Part shown: piece by piece, positions 27,895-61,619 of the stretch | Numbering within the stretch: position 1 is the stretch's first letter | Layout: each line of letters opens with the position of its first letter | Source: Candidatus Hydrogenedentota bacterium | GTDB taxonomy: Bacteria; Hydrogenedentota; Hydrogenedentia; Hydrogenedentales; SLHB01 | DNA length: 64,000 nt | Reading direction: 5' to 3' | NCBI GenBank assembly: GCA_045863295.1 | Contig: BTWA01000002.1 | Coordinates: 70,399-134,398, forward strand | Notes under the pieces: model-generated | Database searches by the model: none | What the model saw: the letters and a program-made list of their open reading frames with translations, nothing else | Told to the model about the DNA's origin: nothing | Position numbers and translations under genes: made by a program

Positions 27895-28545
27895 TCAAAC
27901 CCTTTCCACGGGCTGGCCGGGAAGCTGACTCGTTTCTTGCGGCTTGCAGGCCAACGGGGCAAAGCTACGACGATGGATGGGACACGGTCCCCAGTGCGCC
28001 AAGGCGTCCAGGTGGCGCCGCGTGCCGTAGCCTTTGTGGCGGGCAAATCCATACTCAGGATAACACACGTCCATCTCCAACATAATCCGATCCCGCGTGA
28101 CCTTTGCCACAATACTGGCAGCCGCGATGGATTGTGACAGGCAATCGCCCTTCACGATTCGCTGGTGCGGCACGGGACACGCCGGCAAACGGTACCCGTC
28201 CACCAACAGATGGTCCGGAGCCGGTTCAAGCGCGGCCAACGCCTGCAGCATCGCGGCGTAGTTGGCGGATTGAATGCCCATCCGGTCAATTTCTTCAGCG
28301 GATATCACGGCGATTCCGATCGCGTGGCCGCCCTCGTGTAACACCGAAAAGAGCCGGTCGCGTTCCACTTCGGTGAGTTGTTTGGAGTCGTTCAGACCCG
28401 CCACCGGCGCACACAGGACCACGGCCGCGGCAACAATGGGGCCCGCCAGCGGTCCCCGCCCTGCCTCGTCGACCCCCGCCACGCGATGAAACCCCATATC
28501 CATGGCGGCCTGCTCGAATTGCCACATAGGCACGGAGTTCGCCAT
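27895..28545 (-). CDS. rnhB: Ribonuclease HII (start uncertain)
   Basis: VAGVDEAGRGPLAGP, NDSKQL, KGD..SQSIAAASIVAKVTRD, HKGYGT, HRRSF. Confidence 0.95.
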   Translation of the reverse strand: MANSVPMWQFEQAAMDMGFHRVAGVDEAGRGPLAGPIVAAAVVLCAPVAGLNDSKQLTEVERDRLFSVLHEGGHAIGIAVISAEEIDRMGIQSANYAAMLQALAALEPAPDHLLVDGYRLPACPVPHQRIVKGDCLSQSIAAASIVAKVTRDRIMLEMDVCYPEYGFARHKGYGTRRHLDALAHWGPCPIHRRSFAPLACKPQETSQLPGQPVERV

Positions 28546-28716
28546 TGGAACGCTTGTATCCATGCCGGGCAGGCATAGAGTCAGGGCAGGTTTTCCCGCG
28601 TGGGATTGGGCAATCATTCAACACTCCGGAGGTTCAACTAAGCCTTCAAGGCAGCATACCACGCGAGACTCCGATGCCAAAAAACGTTTCGGATGCAACG
28701 CCTGGGACGCGCGACT

Positions 28717-28899
28717 TCACTCCTTCTTGTCGAGCAGGGCCGCCAGAATACCTAAAAGGGTCAAGCTGCCGGATAGTGTGATCCAACTGATCAGTTGCGC
28801 GCCGAGAAAGAATTCCGGATGTCCTTGGAACTTGCCCACGACCGCCCCTGCCAAGGCTGCCACTCCGGCCGCGCCAAATGCATACGCTACGATCTTCAT
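28717..28899 (-). CDS. Small (60 aa) two-helix membrane protein
   Basis: MKIVAYAFG...LLDKKE with strong RBS GAGGAGG upstream of ATG 28899. Confidence 0.65.
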   Translation of the reverse strand: MKIVAYAFGAAGVAALAGAVVGKFQGHPEFFLGAQLISWITLSGSLTLLGILAALLDKKE

Positions 28900-29116
28900 G
28901 GATAGGCCCTCCTCGTTGATCCAGTTCGGTTCGAGTGGTGCACTCCCATTCCGCCGGATCCAACACCTGGATCCTGACCTCCCGCGGAAATTGCCTGGGG
29001 GCGCATGACTCCGCGGGGCCATTGTACCCCACACGTACCTTGAGTGCGCCCATGAATGCAACAGGGTTGCCTTAATGAGTGGTGAACCCTATTCACGGCG
29101 CGAAGGGAGCAGAAGC

Positions 29117-30736
29117 ATGGGCAAGGTGACGCAAAACGATGTGCCACAAGGGCTTGCGGATACGCATCAAGCGATGCTGAGAAAGGCGGCGGGCGTGCTG
29201 GACGATGCCGCCGCGTACGAGGCCAAGGTGCGGCGAACGGCCAAGACCACATCCACCAAGCGAAAAATGCCTTGGAACATGGCGCGAGCCAGGAACCAGT
29301 TGAAGAAACGCGAATTGAGTCCGGCCGAAACGGAGCAATGGCTGAATCTGCACCAACGAGCGGAATTTGCAAAGCAGAACCTCCACGACGAGTCCGGCCA
29401 GCCTTGGAGTTCACGGGATTACCAAAAGGATTCGCTGGAATCGACGGCGCTGCGCAAGGTGCACTGCGATGGCCGGGACGTGGGCAAGACGTCGGAAATC
29501 GAAATCATTGCCGCGTGGGCCATGGTCACCCAACCGGACAAACAGATGCTTATTGCCACGCAATGCGAGAACCATCTGTTTCCACTGATGGCGCGGCTGG
29601 CACGGCGGTTTCAAACGACGCCACAATTTGCGCCAAGCGTGGTGGAGTTGCGTCGTTCGCCTTCCTGGTACTTCCGGTTTTCAAATGGGTTTCAGTTGTG
29701 GGGCCGGATTGCGGGTCCCCATGGCGTGAACTTTCAAGGAATGCACGTCGATTGGCAAATCATCGATGAAGCGCAGGAAATGTGCGAGACCGCGTGGGGG
29801 GAATTGTATCAGGCGTTGAACGGGGGCGGACGGCGTTGGGTCTATGGGGTGCCCAATGGATTGCGCAACACGTTCTACCGGATGACGCAGGATCTGGAAA
29901 GCGAACAACACAATTGGCCGAGCTCGCTCAATCCGGAATTCACAGTGGAAAAAGACGCCGAACTGGCGCGGCTCTACGGCGGCAAGAACTCGCCGGGATA
30001 CATCCACCGCGTATTGGGAATGCACGGATCGCCCGCGCACGGCGTGTTCAATCTCGACGACTATCTCGCGTGTGTACGGGAAGACGCTGAATTTATCAAT
30101 GTGGTTCTCACGGCGGCGGACGAATTTGAAGCGCCCACGGGGATAACTTCCGGCGAATACTATCTGGGATGCGACCTCGGCTACGCGCGGGACCCCTCCG
30201 AGTTTGTGGTGTACCGGGCGGAGCCGCCCCATTTGCGCAATGTGTTGCGCGTGCATCTGGAAGGGGTGCATTACGCCAAACAGCAGCGAATCATTCAGGA
30301 ACTGGATCGCGCATACCAATTCCGCGCCATCGCGATCGACTGCGGCAACAGCGGCCGGGCCGTCGCCCACAACCTGATGGACCAGAATTCGGTGATGTGC
30401 GACAAAGTCCGCGCGATCGAGTTCGGCGGATCGTTGGACCTGCCCCCGCTGCCCGATGGCAGGCCAAGGCGCCGTCAAGCCAAACAATTCATGACCGAAC
30501 TGTTGGAGCGCTGGATGACGGAACGAGTGCTTGTGTTTCCCCGGCTGCCCGACCGCGAGACGCAGTATGCATCGCACACCTATTCACTCGGCACATTCGG
30601 ACAAATCGTCTACGACAAAGGCGACGATCACATCATCGACGCGGACCGTTGCGCGGCGTTGGCATACTTCGAAGAAATCAACATGGACCAAGGCGGCGGC
30701 GGTTTCACCAAAGGGGTGGTGGTGGAGGTGTTTTGA
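29117..30736 (+). CDS. Phage terminase large subunit-like protein (ATPase + RNase H-like nuclease), orphan
   Basis: YQ adenine-binding motif, Walker A GRDVGKTS, Walker B WQIIDEAQ, coupling-like YGVPNG, nuclease LGCDLG / AIDCG / DDHIIDA; start 29117 or 29075. Confidence 0.85.
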   Translation: MGKVTQNDVPQGLADTHQAMLRKAAGVLDDAAAYEAKVRRTAKTTSTKRKMPWNMARARNQLKKRELSPAETEQWLNLHQRAEFAKQNLHDESGQPWSSRDYQKDSLESTALRKVHCDGRDVGKTSEIEIIAAWAMVTQPDKQMLIATQCENHLFPLMARLARRFQTTPQFAPSVVELRRSPSWYFRFSNGFQLWGRIAGPHGVNFQGMHVDWQIIDEAQEMCETAWGELYQALNGGGRRWVYGVPNGLRNTFYRMTQDLESEQHNWPSSLNPEFTVEKDAELARLYGGKNSPGYIHRVLGMHGSPAHGVFNLDDYLACVREDAEFINVVLTAADEFEAPTGITSGEYYLGCDLGYARDPSEFVVYRAEPPHLRNVLRVHLEGVHYAKQQRIIQELDRAYQFRAIAIDCGNSGRAVAHNLMDQNSVMCDKVRAIEFGGSLDLPPLPDGRPRRRQAKQFMTELLERWMTERVLVFPRLPDRETQYASHTYSLGTFGQIVYDKGDDHIIDADRCAALAYFEEINMDQGGGGFTKGVVVEVF

Positions 30737-30935: not shown

Positions 30936-32315
30936 ATGGCATCCATCAAACCTCAGATACTGGTCACCGAAGACGACACTACGCAACGCGAGATCATTCG
31001 CGACATTTTGAATGCGTCGGGCTATGCCGTGGAGGCGGTGGGCTCGGCGTCGAATGCGCTGGCCGCGCTGGAGCGGGAGGCCTTCAGCGTGTTGTTGACC
31101 GATCTGCGGATGCCGGAGATGGACGGCATCGGTCTGTTATCGCGGGCGAAGCGCATCCGGCCGGAGTTGGAGGTCGTCGTGATGACGGCATATGCCACGG
31201 TGCAAACAGCCGTGACCGCGATGAAGGAGGGCGCGTCGGATTATTTGTCGAAGCCGTTCGACAAAGACGAATTGCTGGTAGTCATCGGCAAGGCGGTCGA
31301 GCGGGCCGAGTTGCGGCGCGAGAACAGGAACTTGCGCGAATTGGTGACGGCGTCCGTAGCGCTGGGCAATGTGGTCGGCGAGTCCGGGGTGATGCAAAAA
31401 GTGTTCGACGTGGTGCGGCGGGCCGTGCCGATCGGTTCGACGGTGTTGATCACCGGAGAATCAGGCACGGGCAAGGAGATGGTGGCGCGGCATATCCATT
31501 TTGAAGGGCCGCGCAAAGCGAAGCCGTTCGTCGTGGTGAATTGCGCGGCCATTCCGGACACGCTGGTGGAATCCGAGTTGTTTGGCCACGAGAAAGGCGC
31601 GTTCACGGGGGCGGATGCGGCGCGGCAAGGAAAGTTTGAATTGGCAAACGGCGGCACACTGTTTCTGGATGAAGTGGGGGACATGCCGCTGGAATCGCAA
31701 CCCAAACTGTTGCGCGTGCTTCAGGACGGAGTCGTGGAACGAATCGGCTCGTCCACACAGCGGCAAGTAGATGTGCGCGTCATCGCGGCCACGAACCGGG
31801 ACTTGAAAAAGCGCGTGGAGGCCGGGGAGTTTCGCGAAGACCTCTATTTCCGGTTGGACGTACTGCCGGTGGTGCTGCCGCCGTTACGGGAACGGCTTCA
31901 CGACTTGCCGCTGCTGGTAAATCACTTTCGAGAGAAATTGTCGAAGCGGCTCGGCAAACCGTGCCCCACGATTGGCCCGGATGCCCTGGAATTGATGCGG
32001 CGGTACCGCTGGCCGGGCAACGTGCGCGAACTGGAAAACACGCTGGAGCAGTTGTACATCCTGACCGACGCGGATGTAATCAAGCCCGAGCATCTGCCTG
32101 AAAAGTTGCGCGATCGCACGCCGGAGCCCGGTGATTTCGCGTTGCCCCCGGGAGGCATTGTGCTGGAGGATTTGGAACAGGATCTCATCCGGCAGGCGCT
32201 CGCGCGGTCGGGAGGGAGCATCAAAGACGCGGCCGAATTGCTTGGACTCACCTATAAAACACTTCAATACCGCCTGAAGAAACACGAAATCGATCGCAAA
32301 GCGGAACAGGCCTGA
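30936..32315 (+). CDS. Sigma54-dependent response regulator (NtrC/ZraR family), no adjacent kinase
   Basis: Receiver (EDD, DLRMP, KPF), GESGTGKE, GAFTGA, DEVGD, WPGNVRE, Fis-type HTH. Confidence 0.95.
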   Translation: MASIKPQILVTEDDTTQREIIRDILNASGYAVEAVGSASNALAALEREAFSVLLTDLRMPEMDGIGLLSRAKRIRPELEVVVMTAYATVQTAVTAMKEGASDYLSKPFDKDELLVVIGKAVERAELRRENRNLRELVTASVALGNVVGESGVMQKVFDVVRRAVPIGSTVLITGESGTGKEMVARHIHFEGPRKAKPFVVVNCAAIPDTLVESELFGHEKGAFTGADAARQGKFELANGGTLFLDEVGDMPLESQPKLLRVLQDGVVERIGSSTQRQVDVRVIAATNRDLKKRVEAGEFREDLYFRLDVLPVVLPPLRERLHDLPLLVNHFREKLSKRLGKPCPTIGPDALELMRRYRWPGNVRELENTLEQLYILTDADVIKPEHLPEKLRDRTPEPGDFALPPGGIVLEDLEQDLIRQALARSGGSIKDAAELLGLTYKTLQYRLKKHEIDRKAEQA

Positions 32316-48226: not shown

Positions 48227-48304
48227 TGGTCGGGGTGAGAGGATTCGAACCTCCGGCCTCTTCGTCCCGAACGAAGCGCGCTAGCCGGGCTGCGCTACAC
48301 CCCG
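48227..48304 (-). tRNA. tRNA-Pro (anticodon CGG)
   Basis: CGGGGTG acceptor stem, CTTCG-TTCGGGA-CGAAG anticodon arm, GGTTCGAATCC T-arm, encoded CCA. Confidence 0.97.
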
Positions 48305-61172: not shown

Positions 61173-61619
61173 CTATACGTATCGTTCATCATATTCTACT
61201 TTATAGCGTTTGAGAAACGCGCGAAATTCCTCTTGAAATGTTCTCTTCCGGTGATGTTCTTCCTGGTTGCCGATGTACGTGCGTACGGTGGCCACTTGTG
61301 ACTGCCCGATTGAGAAAGCGCCGTAGCCACTTTGCCATTGAAACCTGGCAAGCGAGGCATGCTGGGTCTTGATCCAGCGAGATGACCCCTTCTTCACGTC
61401 TTCAATTACGTTACACAGAGCCCTGTTCTTCGAGAGGCAGAAAAGGGCATGAACATGATCTTCGGTGCCGCCTATCGTCAGTACAGGACAATCGAGATCG
61501 CGAAAAATGCCCGCCTGATATTCGAAAAGACTGGGGCGCACGCCGGCAAATAGAAACGGTTTGCGATCCTTTGTGCTGTAGATAAGATGAATGAGATTCA
61601 TTGCCAGCGATTGCGACAT
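61173..61619 (-). CDS. tnpA: IS200/IS605-family Y1 transposase (REP-associated type)
   Basis: HLIYSTKDR, GGTEDHVH (HUH), KKGSSRW, WQSGYGAFS, YIGNQEEHH. Confidence 0.92.
   Translation of the reverse strand: MSQSLAMNLIHLIYSTKDRKPFLFAGVRPSLFEYQAGIFRDLDCPVLTIGGTEDHVHALFCLSKNRALCNVIEDVKKGSSRWIKTQHASLARFQWQSGYGAFSIGQSQVATVRTYIGNQEEHHRKRTFQEEFRAFLKRYKVEYDERYV

Follow-up and report, generated by a model that had tools for sequence, protein, structure and literature searches.

A 64,000-nt stretch of DNA from Candidatus Hydrogenedentota bacterium (GCA_045863295.1, contig BTWA01000002.1, positions 70,399 to 134,398 of the forward strand), called the window below, carries an intact gene for a large terminase subunit (TerL) that stands alone among housekeeping genes. 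Judged from the genes, we consider it fairly probable that this TerL is the detached motor for DNA packaging of a phage-derived, domesticated set of particle genes that resembles a gene transfer agent (GTA) and occurs across the Hydrogenedentota. Portal and capsid genes were found on another contig of the same assembly (G000; 96% complete, 88 contigs), in which C2 denotes the contig of the window and C18 that of the head genes.

According to this explanation, an ancient phage-derived particle set would have become fixed in the chromosome and been inherited vertically through the Hydrogenedentota. TerL would ancestrally have stood directly upstream of the portal gene, as in related phages and some relatives, and a rearrangement would have moved it away from the head operon in the lineage of the window. 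The protein would dock on the portal of host-encoded procapsids, translocate DNA by means of its intact ATPase and cut it with its intact nuclease, giving rise to GTA-like particles. A small all-helical protein encoded directly upstream in most relatives, which we call T3, would bind the TerL ATPase domain via its C-terminal helix; in G000, only this docking helix would survive, read in frame onto the TerL N-terminus. An earlier reading of the window, made from the sequence alone, had proposed a dispersed GTA-like system retained by the host. Its claim of scattered phage-derived loci kept by the host is upheld by the portal and capsid genes on C18, the near-universal presence of TerL, portal and capsid, and the signs of purifying selection, while the GTA-like working of these loci stays at the probability given above.

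The terminase gene and its conservation

The longest open reading frame (ORF) at the locus (29075..30736, plus strand) encodes 553 aa with no internal stop, and the public gene call (P0001) is a 539-aa protein that starts at M15 (29117). The uninterrupted frame with all TerL modules described in the sequence-only reading was recovered, with every listed motif at its reported place. The features are as follows, conservation being that measured in an alignment of 32 homologues.

29075..29116, plus strand: first 14 codons of the longest ORF, probably untranslated (gene-caller start at 29117; predicted local distance difference test (pLDDT) values below 50 at residues 1-24)
29267..30736, plus strand: conserved core, 489 aa from M65 (MPWN...), with N-terminal helices, an ASCE ATPase domain and an RNase H-like nuclease domain; orthologues align from about residue 57-65
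29417..29425, plus strand: DYQ (Q motif), residues 115-117; Q117 conserved in at least 90%
29471..29494, plus strand: Walker A GRDVGKTS, residues 133-140; R134, G137 and K138 invariant
29753..29776, plus strand: Walker B WQIIDEAQ, residues 227-234; E232 invariant, D231 conserved in at least 90%
29843..29860, plus strand: YGVPNG, the coupling motif of the earlier reading, residues 257-262; Y257, G258, P260 and G262 conserved in at least 90%
30164..30181, plus strand: nuclease motif LGCDLG, residues 364-369; D367 invariant
30332..30346, plus strand: nuclease motif AIDCG, residues 420-424; D422 invariant
30623..30643, plus strand: nuclease motif DDHIIDA, residues 517-523; H519 invariant, D518 and D522 conserved in at least 90%

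A profile search, which had been proposed as a check, identified the protein as a terminase: residues 53-532 matched phrog_2 (terminase large subunit) in PHROGs with an E of 9e-24, although Pfam (E≤1) and NCBIfam (E≤0.01) were silent; PADLOC gave no match either. Searching the PDB by sequence returned a weak match only, to the ATPase of P74-26 TerL (E 0.05). The AlphaFold model, built on an alignment, had a mean pLDDT of 86.7, with values below 50 at residues 1-24, 59-63 and 539-553. When this model was compared with the PDB by Foldseek, the top matches were all large terminases, namely D6E (5oe9_B, E 4.1e-17), T4 gp17 (3cpe, E 4.9e-17), HK97 (6z6d, E 3.8e-15) and Sf6 gp2. Its ATPase domain superposed on those of T4 gp17 and P74-26, and its nuclease domain matched the nuclease domains of G20c, E217, P74-26, SPP1 and P22. 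The ORF is thus confirmed as a real, intact large terminase. A scan for sigma-70 promoters and terminators around the gene returned hits at chance level only.

The distribution of the gene was determined in protein and genome collections, the ORFs of relatives being called by a simple longest-ORF rule, under which antisense ORFs are common at such GC content. In the protein database, 370 homologues were retrieved; the top 120 share 64-74% identity with the TerL of the window and are for the most part some 475-500 aa long, with a few longer ones (P0015, P0082), and those with names are mostly hypothetical proteins of Candidatus Hydrogenedentes. A TerL match was present in 36 of 41 relatives (13 families, one order). 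Among 135 Hydrogenedentota genomes, all of them metagenome-assembled genomes (MAGs) in which an absence may be a gap, TerL was detected in 122, including 83 of the 86 high-quality ones (E≤1e-20); full-length matches were 51-71% identical, mostly with one per genome. One genome of the same phylum outside the order of the window (G042) encodes a TerL that is 58% identical. In contigs from one genome per species, the best 80 loci showed 42-71% identity, and their titles named either Hydrogenedentota or differently labelled MAGs (Nitrospiraceae/Nitrospirales, FCB group, Latescibacterota, Armatimonadota and an unnamed bacterium).

Methionyl-tRNA synthetase (MetRS) from the window served as comparator. 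It was found in 113 of the 135 genomes (E≤1e-40), with 65-80% identity within the order and 44-46% in two genomes outside it. TerL, which the same procedure detected in 122 genomes, therefore shows a degree of conservation similar to that of a core enzyme. As a separate observation on the comparator, MetRS of G015, G041, G042 and the genomes of family f3 was only 39-46% identical to that of the window, versus 65-80% for the other full-length matches, which suggests two MetRS types within the phylum.

The ratio of non-synonymous to synonymous substitutions (dN/dS; Nei-Gojobori), computed for 3577 pairs among 87 TerL sequences, gave a median of 0.098 (range 0.03-0.25) in the 40 pairs with 80-98.5% amino-acid identity, some of which represent the same genomic place twice. 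These values point to purifying selection on TerL. Gene neighbourhood was not conserved: at 15 TerL loci, no family besides TerL was common to more than four, and the conserved synteny with rnhB or NtrC that had been suggested for inspection was not found at these loci.

Taken as a whole, TerL does not have the look of a decaying prophage remnant, given its wide distribution, its frame without stops, its dN/dS of about 0.1 and its housekeeping neighbours. The outcomes that the sequence-only reading had named as pointing to an ordinary relic did not appear: the gene is present in relatives, its closest homologues are cellular, dN/dS is about 0.1 and no prophage adjoins it.

The head operon and its ties to TerL

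Generic portal and capsid models (PF04860, PF05065, phrog_2739 and phrog_2522) gave no match in G000. Families found beside TerL in the closest viral contigs then served as queries, and only these revealed a portal gene (phrog_3753, E 5e-49, C18:101778-103040) and a gene for an HK97-type major capsid protein (phrog_3922, E 6e-51; Pfam Phage_capsid_4; C18:105301-106347). The orphan portal and capsid genes that the sequence-only reading had advised searching for thus exist in G000, on a contig other than that of the window. They belong to a single operon of about 9 kb with all genes on one strand, free of internal stops and ordered as follows.

C18, one strand: portal; phrog_16951 protein; ORF of about 75 aa; phrog_16951 paralogue; small virion protein (phrog_4588); capsid; protein of about 138 aa; Dit-like protein; 583-aa Tal-like protein; three small ORFs

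The Dit-like protein matches SPP1_Dit, and the Atlas model of the 583-aa Tal-like protein, which contains an SNase-like stretch, resembles the tail-tip proteins Prophage_tail, YqbQ and Sipho_Gp37. One of the three small terminal ORFs shows weak endolysin similarity. On one side the operon borders on genes for NAD synthase and DinB, on the other on aminotransferase, methyltransferase and glycosyltransferase genes; within it, no terminase and no integrase, replication or regulatory phage genes were recognized. Its order is kept in 23 loci from many families. At a cut-off of E≤1e-10, which differs from that used for TerL, the capsid gene was detected in 114 of the 135 genomes (58-81% identical) and the portal gene in 119 (45-78%). 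The capsid gene is nearly always single-copy, the few second matches being fragments.

The distance between TerL and the head operon varies widely. In G035 and G017, TerL lies 5-6 kb from the capsid gene and upstream of the portal gene; in G094, it follows the last gene of the operon, again 5-6 kb from the capsid gene, and in G021 TerL and the portal gene are divergent neighbours. Elsewhere the two are separated by 13 kb (G110), 16 kb (G111), 26 kb (G036), 50 kb (G004), 134 kb (G118), 0.97 Mb (G010) or 1.5 Mb (G039), and in G000 they are on the separate contigs C2 and C18. Pairwise identity matrices from 12 genomes were correlated for TerL and capsid (r 0.55, Mantel p 0.009), TerL and portal (r 0.60, p 0.005) and capsid and portal (r 0.81, p 0.0015), in tests that use related genomes. 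Together with the distribution of the three genes, this correlated divergence speaks in favour of a probable vertical co-diversification.

With regard to phage ancestry, a single-protein scan of IMG/VR with TerL found no relative, and a profile scan of the same database placed the nearest viral TerLs at 31-39% identity. Among GenBank phages, the best match reached 23% identity over 87% of the query. Two IMG/VR contigs (L031 and L034) carry, in the order of the cellular set, genes for TerL (31-39% identical), portal (34-35%), a phrog_16951 protein (28-30%), a small virion protein and capsid (29%). Because these contigs have the same genes in the same order, the whole set of TerL and head genes descends from a single phage lineage. 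When 87 cellular and five viral TerLs were placed in a FastTree tree with L031 and L034 as root, the main sequences of the Hydrogenedentota came out as one clade. The viral sequences L035, L036 and L041 grouped outside this main clade with one divergent MAG sequence, and the sequences of G004 and G017 were oddly placed, which weighs against a firm verdict on vertical inheritance. Compared against taxonomy, TerL identity falls with taxonomic distance, the gene is mostly single-copy and the cellular clade stands apart from viral sequences.

T3, the N-terminal extension and the genomic surroundings

In relatives, an ORF of about 170 aa, T3, precedes TerL on the same strand. After removal of duplicates, 86 distinct TerL sequences remained, of which 71 had enough upstream DNA, 66 of them belonging to the main clade. 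A full T3 was located within 4 kb upstream of TerL at 46 of these 66 loci (within 300 nt at 30), a partial match at five and none at 15; in the clade of second TerL copies described below, it was found at none of five loci. T3 had no match in PHROGs or Pfam. Its model (pLDDT 81.4) consists of four long helices and gave no Foldseek match in the PDB or BFVD at E≤0.001. Similarity to the fold of the HK97 small terminase (TerS; 8pop) was at E 1.3, and the VIA-align result (rank 30, Z 6.5) falls within the background for helical proteins. Rows of the Atlas with small-terminase families (0.86) are leads only, and no helix-turn-helix was recognized in T3.

In a complex prediction with T3 and TerL of G035, each with its alignment, the pair scored 0.67 (runs 0.67, 0.67 and 0.71), versus 0.08 for the best of three controls. 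A score of 0.67 was reached by 116 of 157 solved complexes and by two of 215 mismatched pairs, counts that hold only roughly for this case, in which own alignments were used. The runs agreed in at least 62% of contacts with a partner pLDDT of at least 70; should a comparable terminase complex have been solved, the high score may in part stem from memorization. The predicted contacts comprise T3 residues 132-157, a helix that starts at GLAD (residue 134), and TerL residues 8-34, 65, 91-96, 125-129 and 143-147, that is, the N-terminal helices and the ATPase domain. T3 may be the small terminase of the set, with its C-terminal helix predicted to attach to the ATPase domain of TerL.

The same helix is the segment that is retained in the window, at the start of the TerL frame.

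29117..29266, plus strand: N-terminal extension of the gene-caller form, from M15; nt 29132-29263 (residues 20-63) are a remnant of the T3 C-terminus, read in the TerL frame, no stop intervening
29103..29109, plus strand: Shine-Dalgarno-like AAGGGAG, 7 nt before the ATG at 29117, read from the sequence

Orthologues start at the position of M65. The sequence-only reading had assigned TerL an N-terminal extension of about 75 aa; an extension does exist, with a length of 64 aa relative to orthologues. Within the window, the T3 profile matched only with its positions 117-160 of 162 (local E 2.9e-7), and this remnant is the only T3 profile match in the six-frame translation of the G000 genome (E 0.0065). 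The T3 body is gone from the window, where the minus strand encodes a 60-aa two-helix membrane ORF, and no intact T3 was found elsewhere in G000, including upstream of a 3D-domain gene on C42. A T3-derived stretch on the TerL frame is unique to the window among 87 TerL open frames, and among 270 proteins compared it occurs only in the protein of the window and in the metagenomic homologue P0015. The 539-aa form carrying the T3-derived helix may be made in the organism, because the Shine-Dalgarno-like AAGGGAG precedes its ATG; no comparable motif stands before the ATG at 29267. The sequence-only reading had taken the basic extension for a replacement of TerS in DNA recognition. This idea is not borne out, as orthologues start at M65 and the extension is the leftover TerL-docking C-terminal helix of T3 and not a DNA-recognition module.

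Two further observations concern the region upstream of TerL in relatives. A 160-aa lipoprotein-like 3D-domain protein of the wall-hydrolase type (PF06725; L215:2108-2590) is encoded between T3 and TerL at 29 of 93 loci, and in G000 its gene stands alone near a contig end (C42:616-1104, minus strand). In the very GC-rich relative G023 (L003:482-2446), the TerL frame is open for 655 codons, with an arginine- and proline-rich upstream part. A fusion of T3 and TerL was considered there and rejected, since the upstream frame is open only through its very high GC content and has no similarity to T3; it exemplifies how long ORFs mislead at high GC.

Two other terminase loci were found in G000. A second copy of TerL (C23:22329-23816; L013:9830-11317) is 61% identical over 470 aa, has all motifs intact and lacks T3 upstream. 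It is likewise solitary, its neighbours including genes for dCTP deaminase and a sigma factor, and it belongs to a paralogue clade nested in the cellular clade and seen in several genomes of the same family group. The other locus is a true prophage on C15 (about 105-119 kb; L194:5000-19000), in which, on one strand, TerS (phrog_4044) and TerL (phrog_2, E 3e-33) lie side by side, together with genes for a 661-aa head-tail adaptor/portal-like protein, a Holliday junction resolvase, a DnaD-like loader, a helicase and a tail-fibre-like protein. No pairwise similarity links this prophage TerL to the one of the window (E 0.49), and a stop codon was reported within the phrog_2 match of the prophage gene. 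The block illustrates the usual appearance of a prophage terminase in the organism.

The genes that flank TerL in the window lie outside the system.

27895..28617, minus strand: RNase HII (PF01351, E 7.6e-36); adjacency not kept in relatives
28717..28899, minus strand: 60-aa two-helix membrane ORF (MKIVAY...KKE), with two predicted hydrophobic helices, at the site occupied by the T3 body in relatives
30936..32315, plus strand: NtrC-type sigma-54 activator (Sigma54_activat, E 2.4e-72; Response_reg; HTH_8); adjacency not conserved

A 114-aa ORF that contains the membrane ORF had no match in Pfam (E≤1e-5), NCBIfam or PADLOC (E≤0.01). By Pfam scan, the 44 ORFs of the window proved to be housekeeping throughout, including asparagine synthase, MetH, a P-type ATPase, RNase HII, the NtrC-type activator, SHMT, an ABC transporter and MetRS, with no terminase small subunit, portal, capsid or integrase among them. 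The scan and translation agree with the earlier description of the neighbours (rnhB, a small membrane peptide and an NtrC regulator) and with the reported absence of terS, portal, capsid and integrase genes from the 64 kb. The only tRNA is a tRNA-Pro (48227-48304), and the sole mobile-element gene is an IS200-type transposase (Y1_Tnp; 61173-61619, minus strand). The GC content around TerL (0.575-0.59) is the same as that of the window, whereas the segment 61000-64000, which holds the transposase, has about 0.52 versus about 0.59 elsewhere and may be a small inserted element.

Alternative readings, significance and comparison with known systems

Several observations weigh against a GTA-like particle set as the context of TerL. 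Co-occurrence is imperfect: all three genes (TerL, portal and capsid) were found in 102 of the 135 genomes by hand tally, G027 (95% complete) and G041 (96%) have portal and capsid without TerL even by profile search, and in G028 (97% complete) T3 and TerL are present but neither portal nor capsid was matched, the absence of the capsid gene being deduced from family tallies. Similarly, G038 has portal and capsid with no TerL-like match even by profile, G032 a portal match only, and G096 TerL without portal or capsid match. In all five of the operons L207-L211 (G049, G036, G082, G034 and G027, from three families), the Tal-like gene is missing and the small terminal ORFs come right after the capsid gene; the genes for the 138-aa and Dit-like proteins are also missing in L208, L209 and L211, so that in some families only the head part of the operon is kept. 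Neither a tail tube nor a tape measure, a head-tail adaptor or a holin could be recognized in the operon. The second TerL paralogue hints at functions beyond one motor per particle, the truncation of T3 in G000, where no intact copy was found, could mean that the local system is impaired, and misassembly or binning gaps are possible in MAGs.

A first alternative, which we judge unlikely, is that the gene set makes particles other than GTAs, that is, particles with a specific DNA cargo, a killing or lysis device, or a self-propagating virus grounded in the chromosome. The odd architecture, with a capsid and a Dit-like/Tal-like tail tip and no recognizable tube, would suit such a role, as would the SNase-like stretch in the Tal-like protein and the linkage of the 3D-domain wall hydrolase to T3 and TerL at the 29 loci mentioned above. 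Neither locus, however, has integrase, replication or regulatory phage genes, and no IMG/VR relative is closer than 39% identity. Moreover, excision as a unit is precluded because the genes are split across contigs or lie up to 1.5 Mb apart.

A stand-alone role for TerL as an exapted ATP-dependent nuclease (defence, packaging interference or DNA processing), uncoupled from capsid genes, is also improbable in our estimation, and less likely than a role in a particle system. Its solitary position with variable neighbours in most genomes agrees with such exaptation, and so do the second solitary paralogue clade without T3 in some families, the retention of T3 and TerL in G028 with no detectable portal or capsid, and the truncated T3 of G000. 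However, TerL has no PADLOC match and adjoins the head operon in G017, G035, G094 and G021; TerL, portal and capsid are near-universal with correlated divergences, and the whole set comes from one phage lineage.

It is very unlikely, in our view, that the system works in the phylum and is decaying in G000, with the loss of T3 having disabled the initiation of packaging and TerL being intact for lack of time. T3 is indeed down to 44 residues with no other copy in a 96%-complete assembly, an arrangement unique among the 87 frames, but TerL and the entire C18 operon, portal and capsid genes included, are free of internal stops, 15 of the 66 main-clade loci likewise lack T3 within 4 kb, the retained piece is exactly the predicted docking helix, and a good ribosome-binding site precedes M15.

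An ordinary prophage remnant left intact by chance, suggested by a TerL-like gene with no partner in 64 kb and by its truncated upstream partner gene, has next to no chance of being correct and is already contradicted by the presence of TerL in 122 of 135 genomes at 51-71% identity, its dN/dS of about 0.1, its GC content matching the surroundings, and the real prophage on C15, which keeps TerS, a dissimilar TerL and a portal-like gene together.

We therefore return to the detached motor of a GTA-like particle set as the explanation we favour. The genes lead us to describe the system as GTA-like rather than to file it as a GTA. A bolder version, which we put forward as possible yet rather doubtful, is that a very old, independent, phylum-wide GTA lineage forms tube-less particles of capsid plus tail tip that move host DNA, and that in G000 the motor has absorbed the docking helix of its partner and works without it, leading to sequence-independent packaging.

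To our knowledge, independent GTA lineages are few and for the most part restricted to one order or class. A phylum-wide phage-derived packaging and capsid set under purifying selection would be among the oldest and broadest domestications of a bacterial virus and, if it does transfer DNA to other cells, would represent an unrecognized route of DNA exchange in the Hydrogenedentota. Full-text literature searches for a Hydrogenedentota terminase, capsid, portal or GTA found no published description of the system. With about 12 genes plus TerL and T3 and no recognizable tail tube, the set is small enough to be tractable for heterologous reconstitution. The window shows the motor fully detached from the head operon and offers a natural experiment in which the small partner is lost except for its predicted TerL-binding helix. 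As regards annotation practice, a lone terminase among housekeeping genes should not be labelled a relic until the genome has been searched for portal and capsid genes that match it.

Compared with solved large terminases (D6E, T4 gp17, HK97 and Sf6 gp2), the TerL of the window has the same ATPase and RNase H-like nuclease fold (Foldseek E 4e-17 to 1e-12) and all catalytic motifs. It differs from them in having only 12-15% identity, in being cellular and, by its distribution, vertically inherited, in not lying beside TerS or portal in G000, and in its extra N-terminal helices (residues 65-105), the predicted docking site of T3. Like phage small terminases, T3 is small, all-helical and encoded directly upstream of TerL, and it is predicted to bind the ATPase domain via its C-terminus; unlike them, it has no PHROG or Pfam match, a fold resemblance at background level and no recognized helix-turn-helix.

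The IMG/VR phages L031, L034, L035, L036 and L041 have the nearest viral TerLs, and L031 and L034 share the cellular gene order. In contrast to the cellular set, these contigs come from genuine phages and hold additional phage genes (ligase-like in L031), and L035, which has an integrase, and L041, which has a methyltransferase, use another portal family. L031 and L034 have a GC content of about 41-42%, as opposed to about 59% in the window, and the viral TerLs differ from the cellular ones much more than cellular orthologues differ among themselves.

GTAs, according to Kogay et al. (Virus Evol 2022, PMC9662315), are characterized by caudoviricete-derived proteins that form virion-like particles, packaging of mostly random host DNA, full endogenization, often at several loci, own genes that cannot all be packaged in one particle, mostly vertical inheritance with co-diversification with hosts, and delivery of DNA to other cells; the genes of RcGTA are scattered across five loci (PMC9662315). 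For the Hydrogenedentota set, phage homologues exist for TerL, the portal and the capsid as well as for the Dit-like and Tal-like proteins, and TerL on C2 and the head operon on C18 lie at several loci with housekeeping flanks and no integrase. Dispersal over distant loci would make co-packaging of all its own genes in one particle implausible, subject to the capacity of the head. The RcGTA-type GTAs of the Alphaproteobacteria likewise have head and packaging genes that are tailed-phage-derived, fixed in the chromosome, split over several loci, inherited with the host across a large clade and devoid of integration and replication genes. The Hydrogenedentota set differs in an independent origin from another phage lineage (portal phrog_3753, capsid phrog_3922 and TerL only in phrog_2), in its phylum, in having no recognized tail tube or tape measure and in being phylum-wide as opposed to class- or order-level, and in that its particles, random packaging and transfer are predicted.

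In gut Oscillospiraceae/Ruminococcaceae, a recently recognized case outside the Alphaproteobacteria, host-encoded capsids are reported to package bacterial DNA in a GTA-like manner, as measured by long-read sequencing of the packaged DNA (PMC12946183, Nat Commun 2026). The Hydrogenedentota set, likewise outside the Alphaproteobacteria, belongs to another phylum and comprises other genes, and its packaging is predicted, that of the gut case measured.

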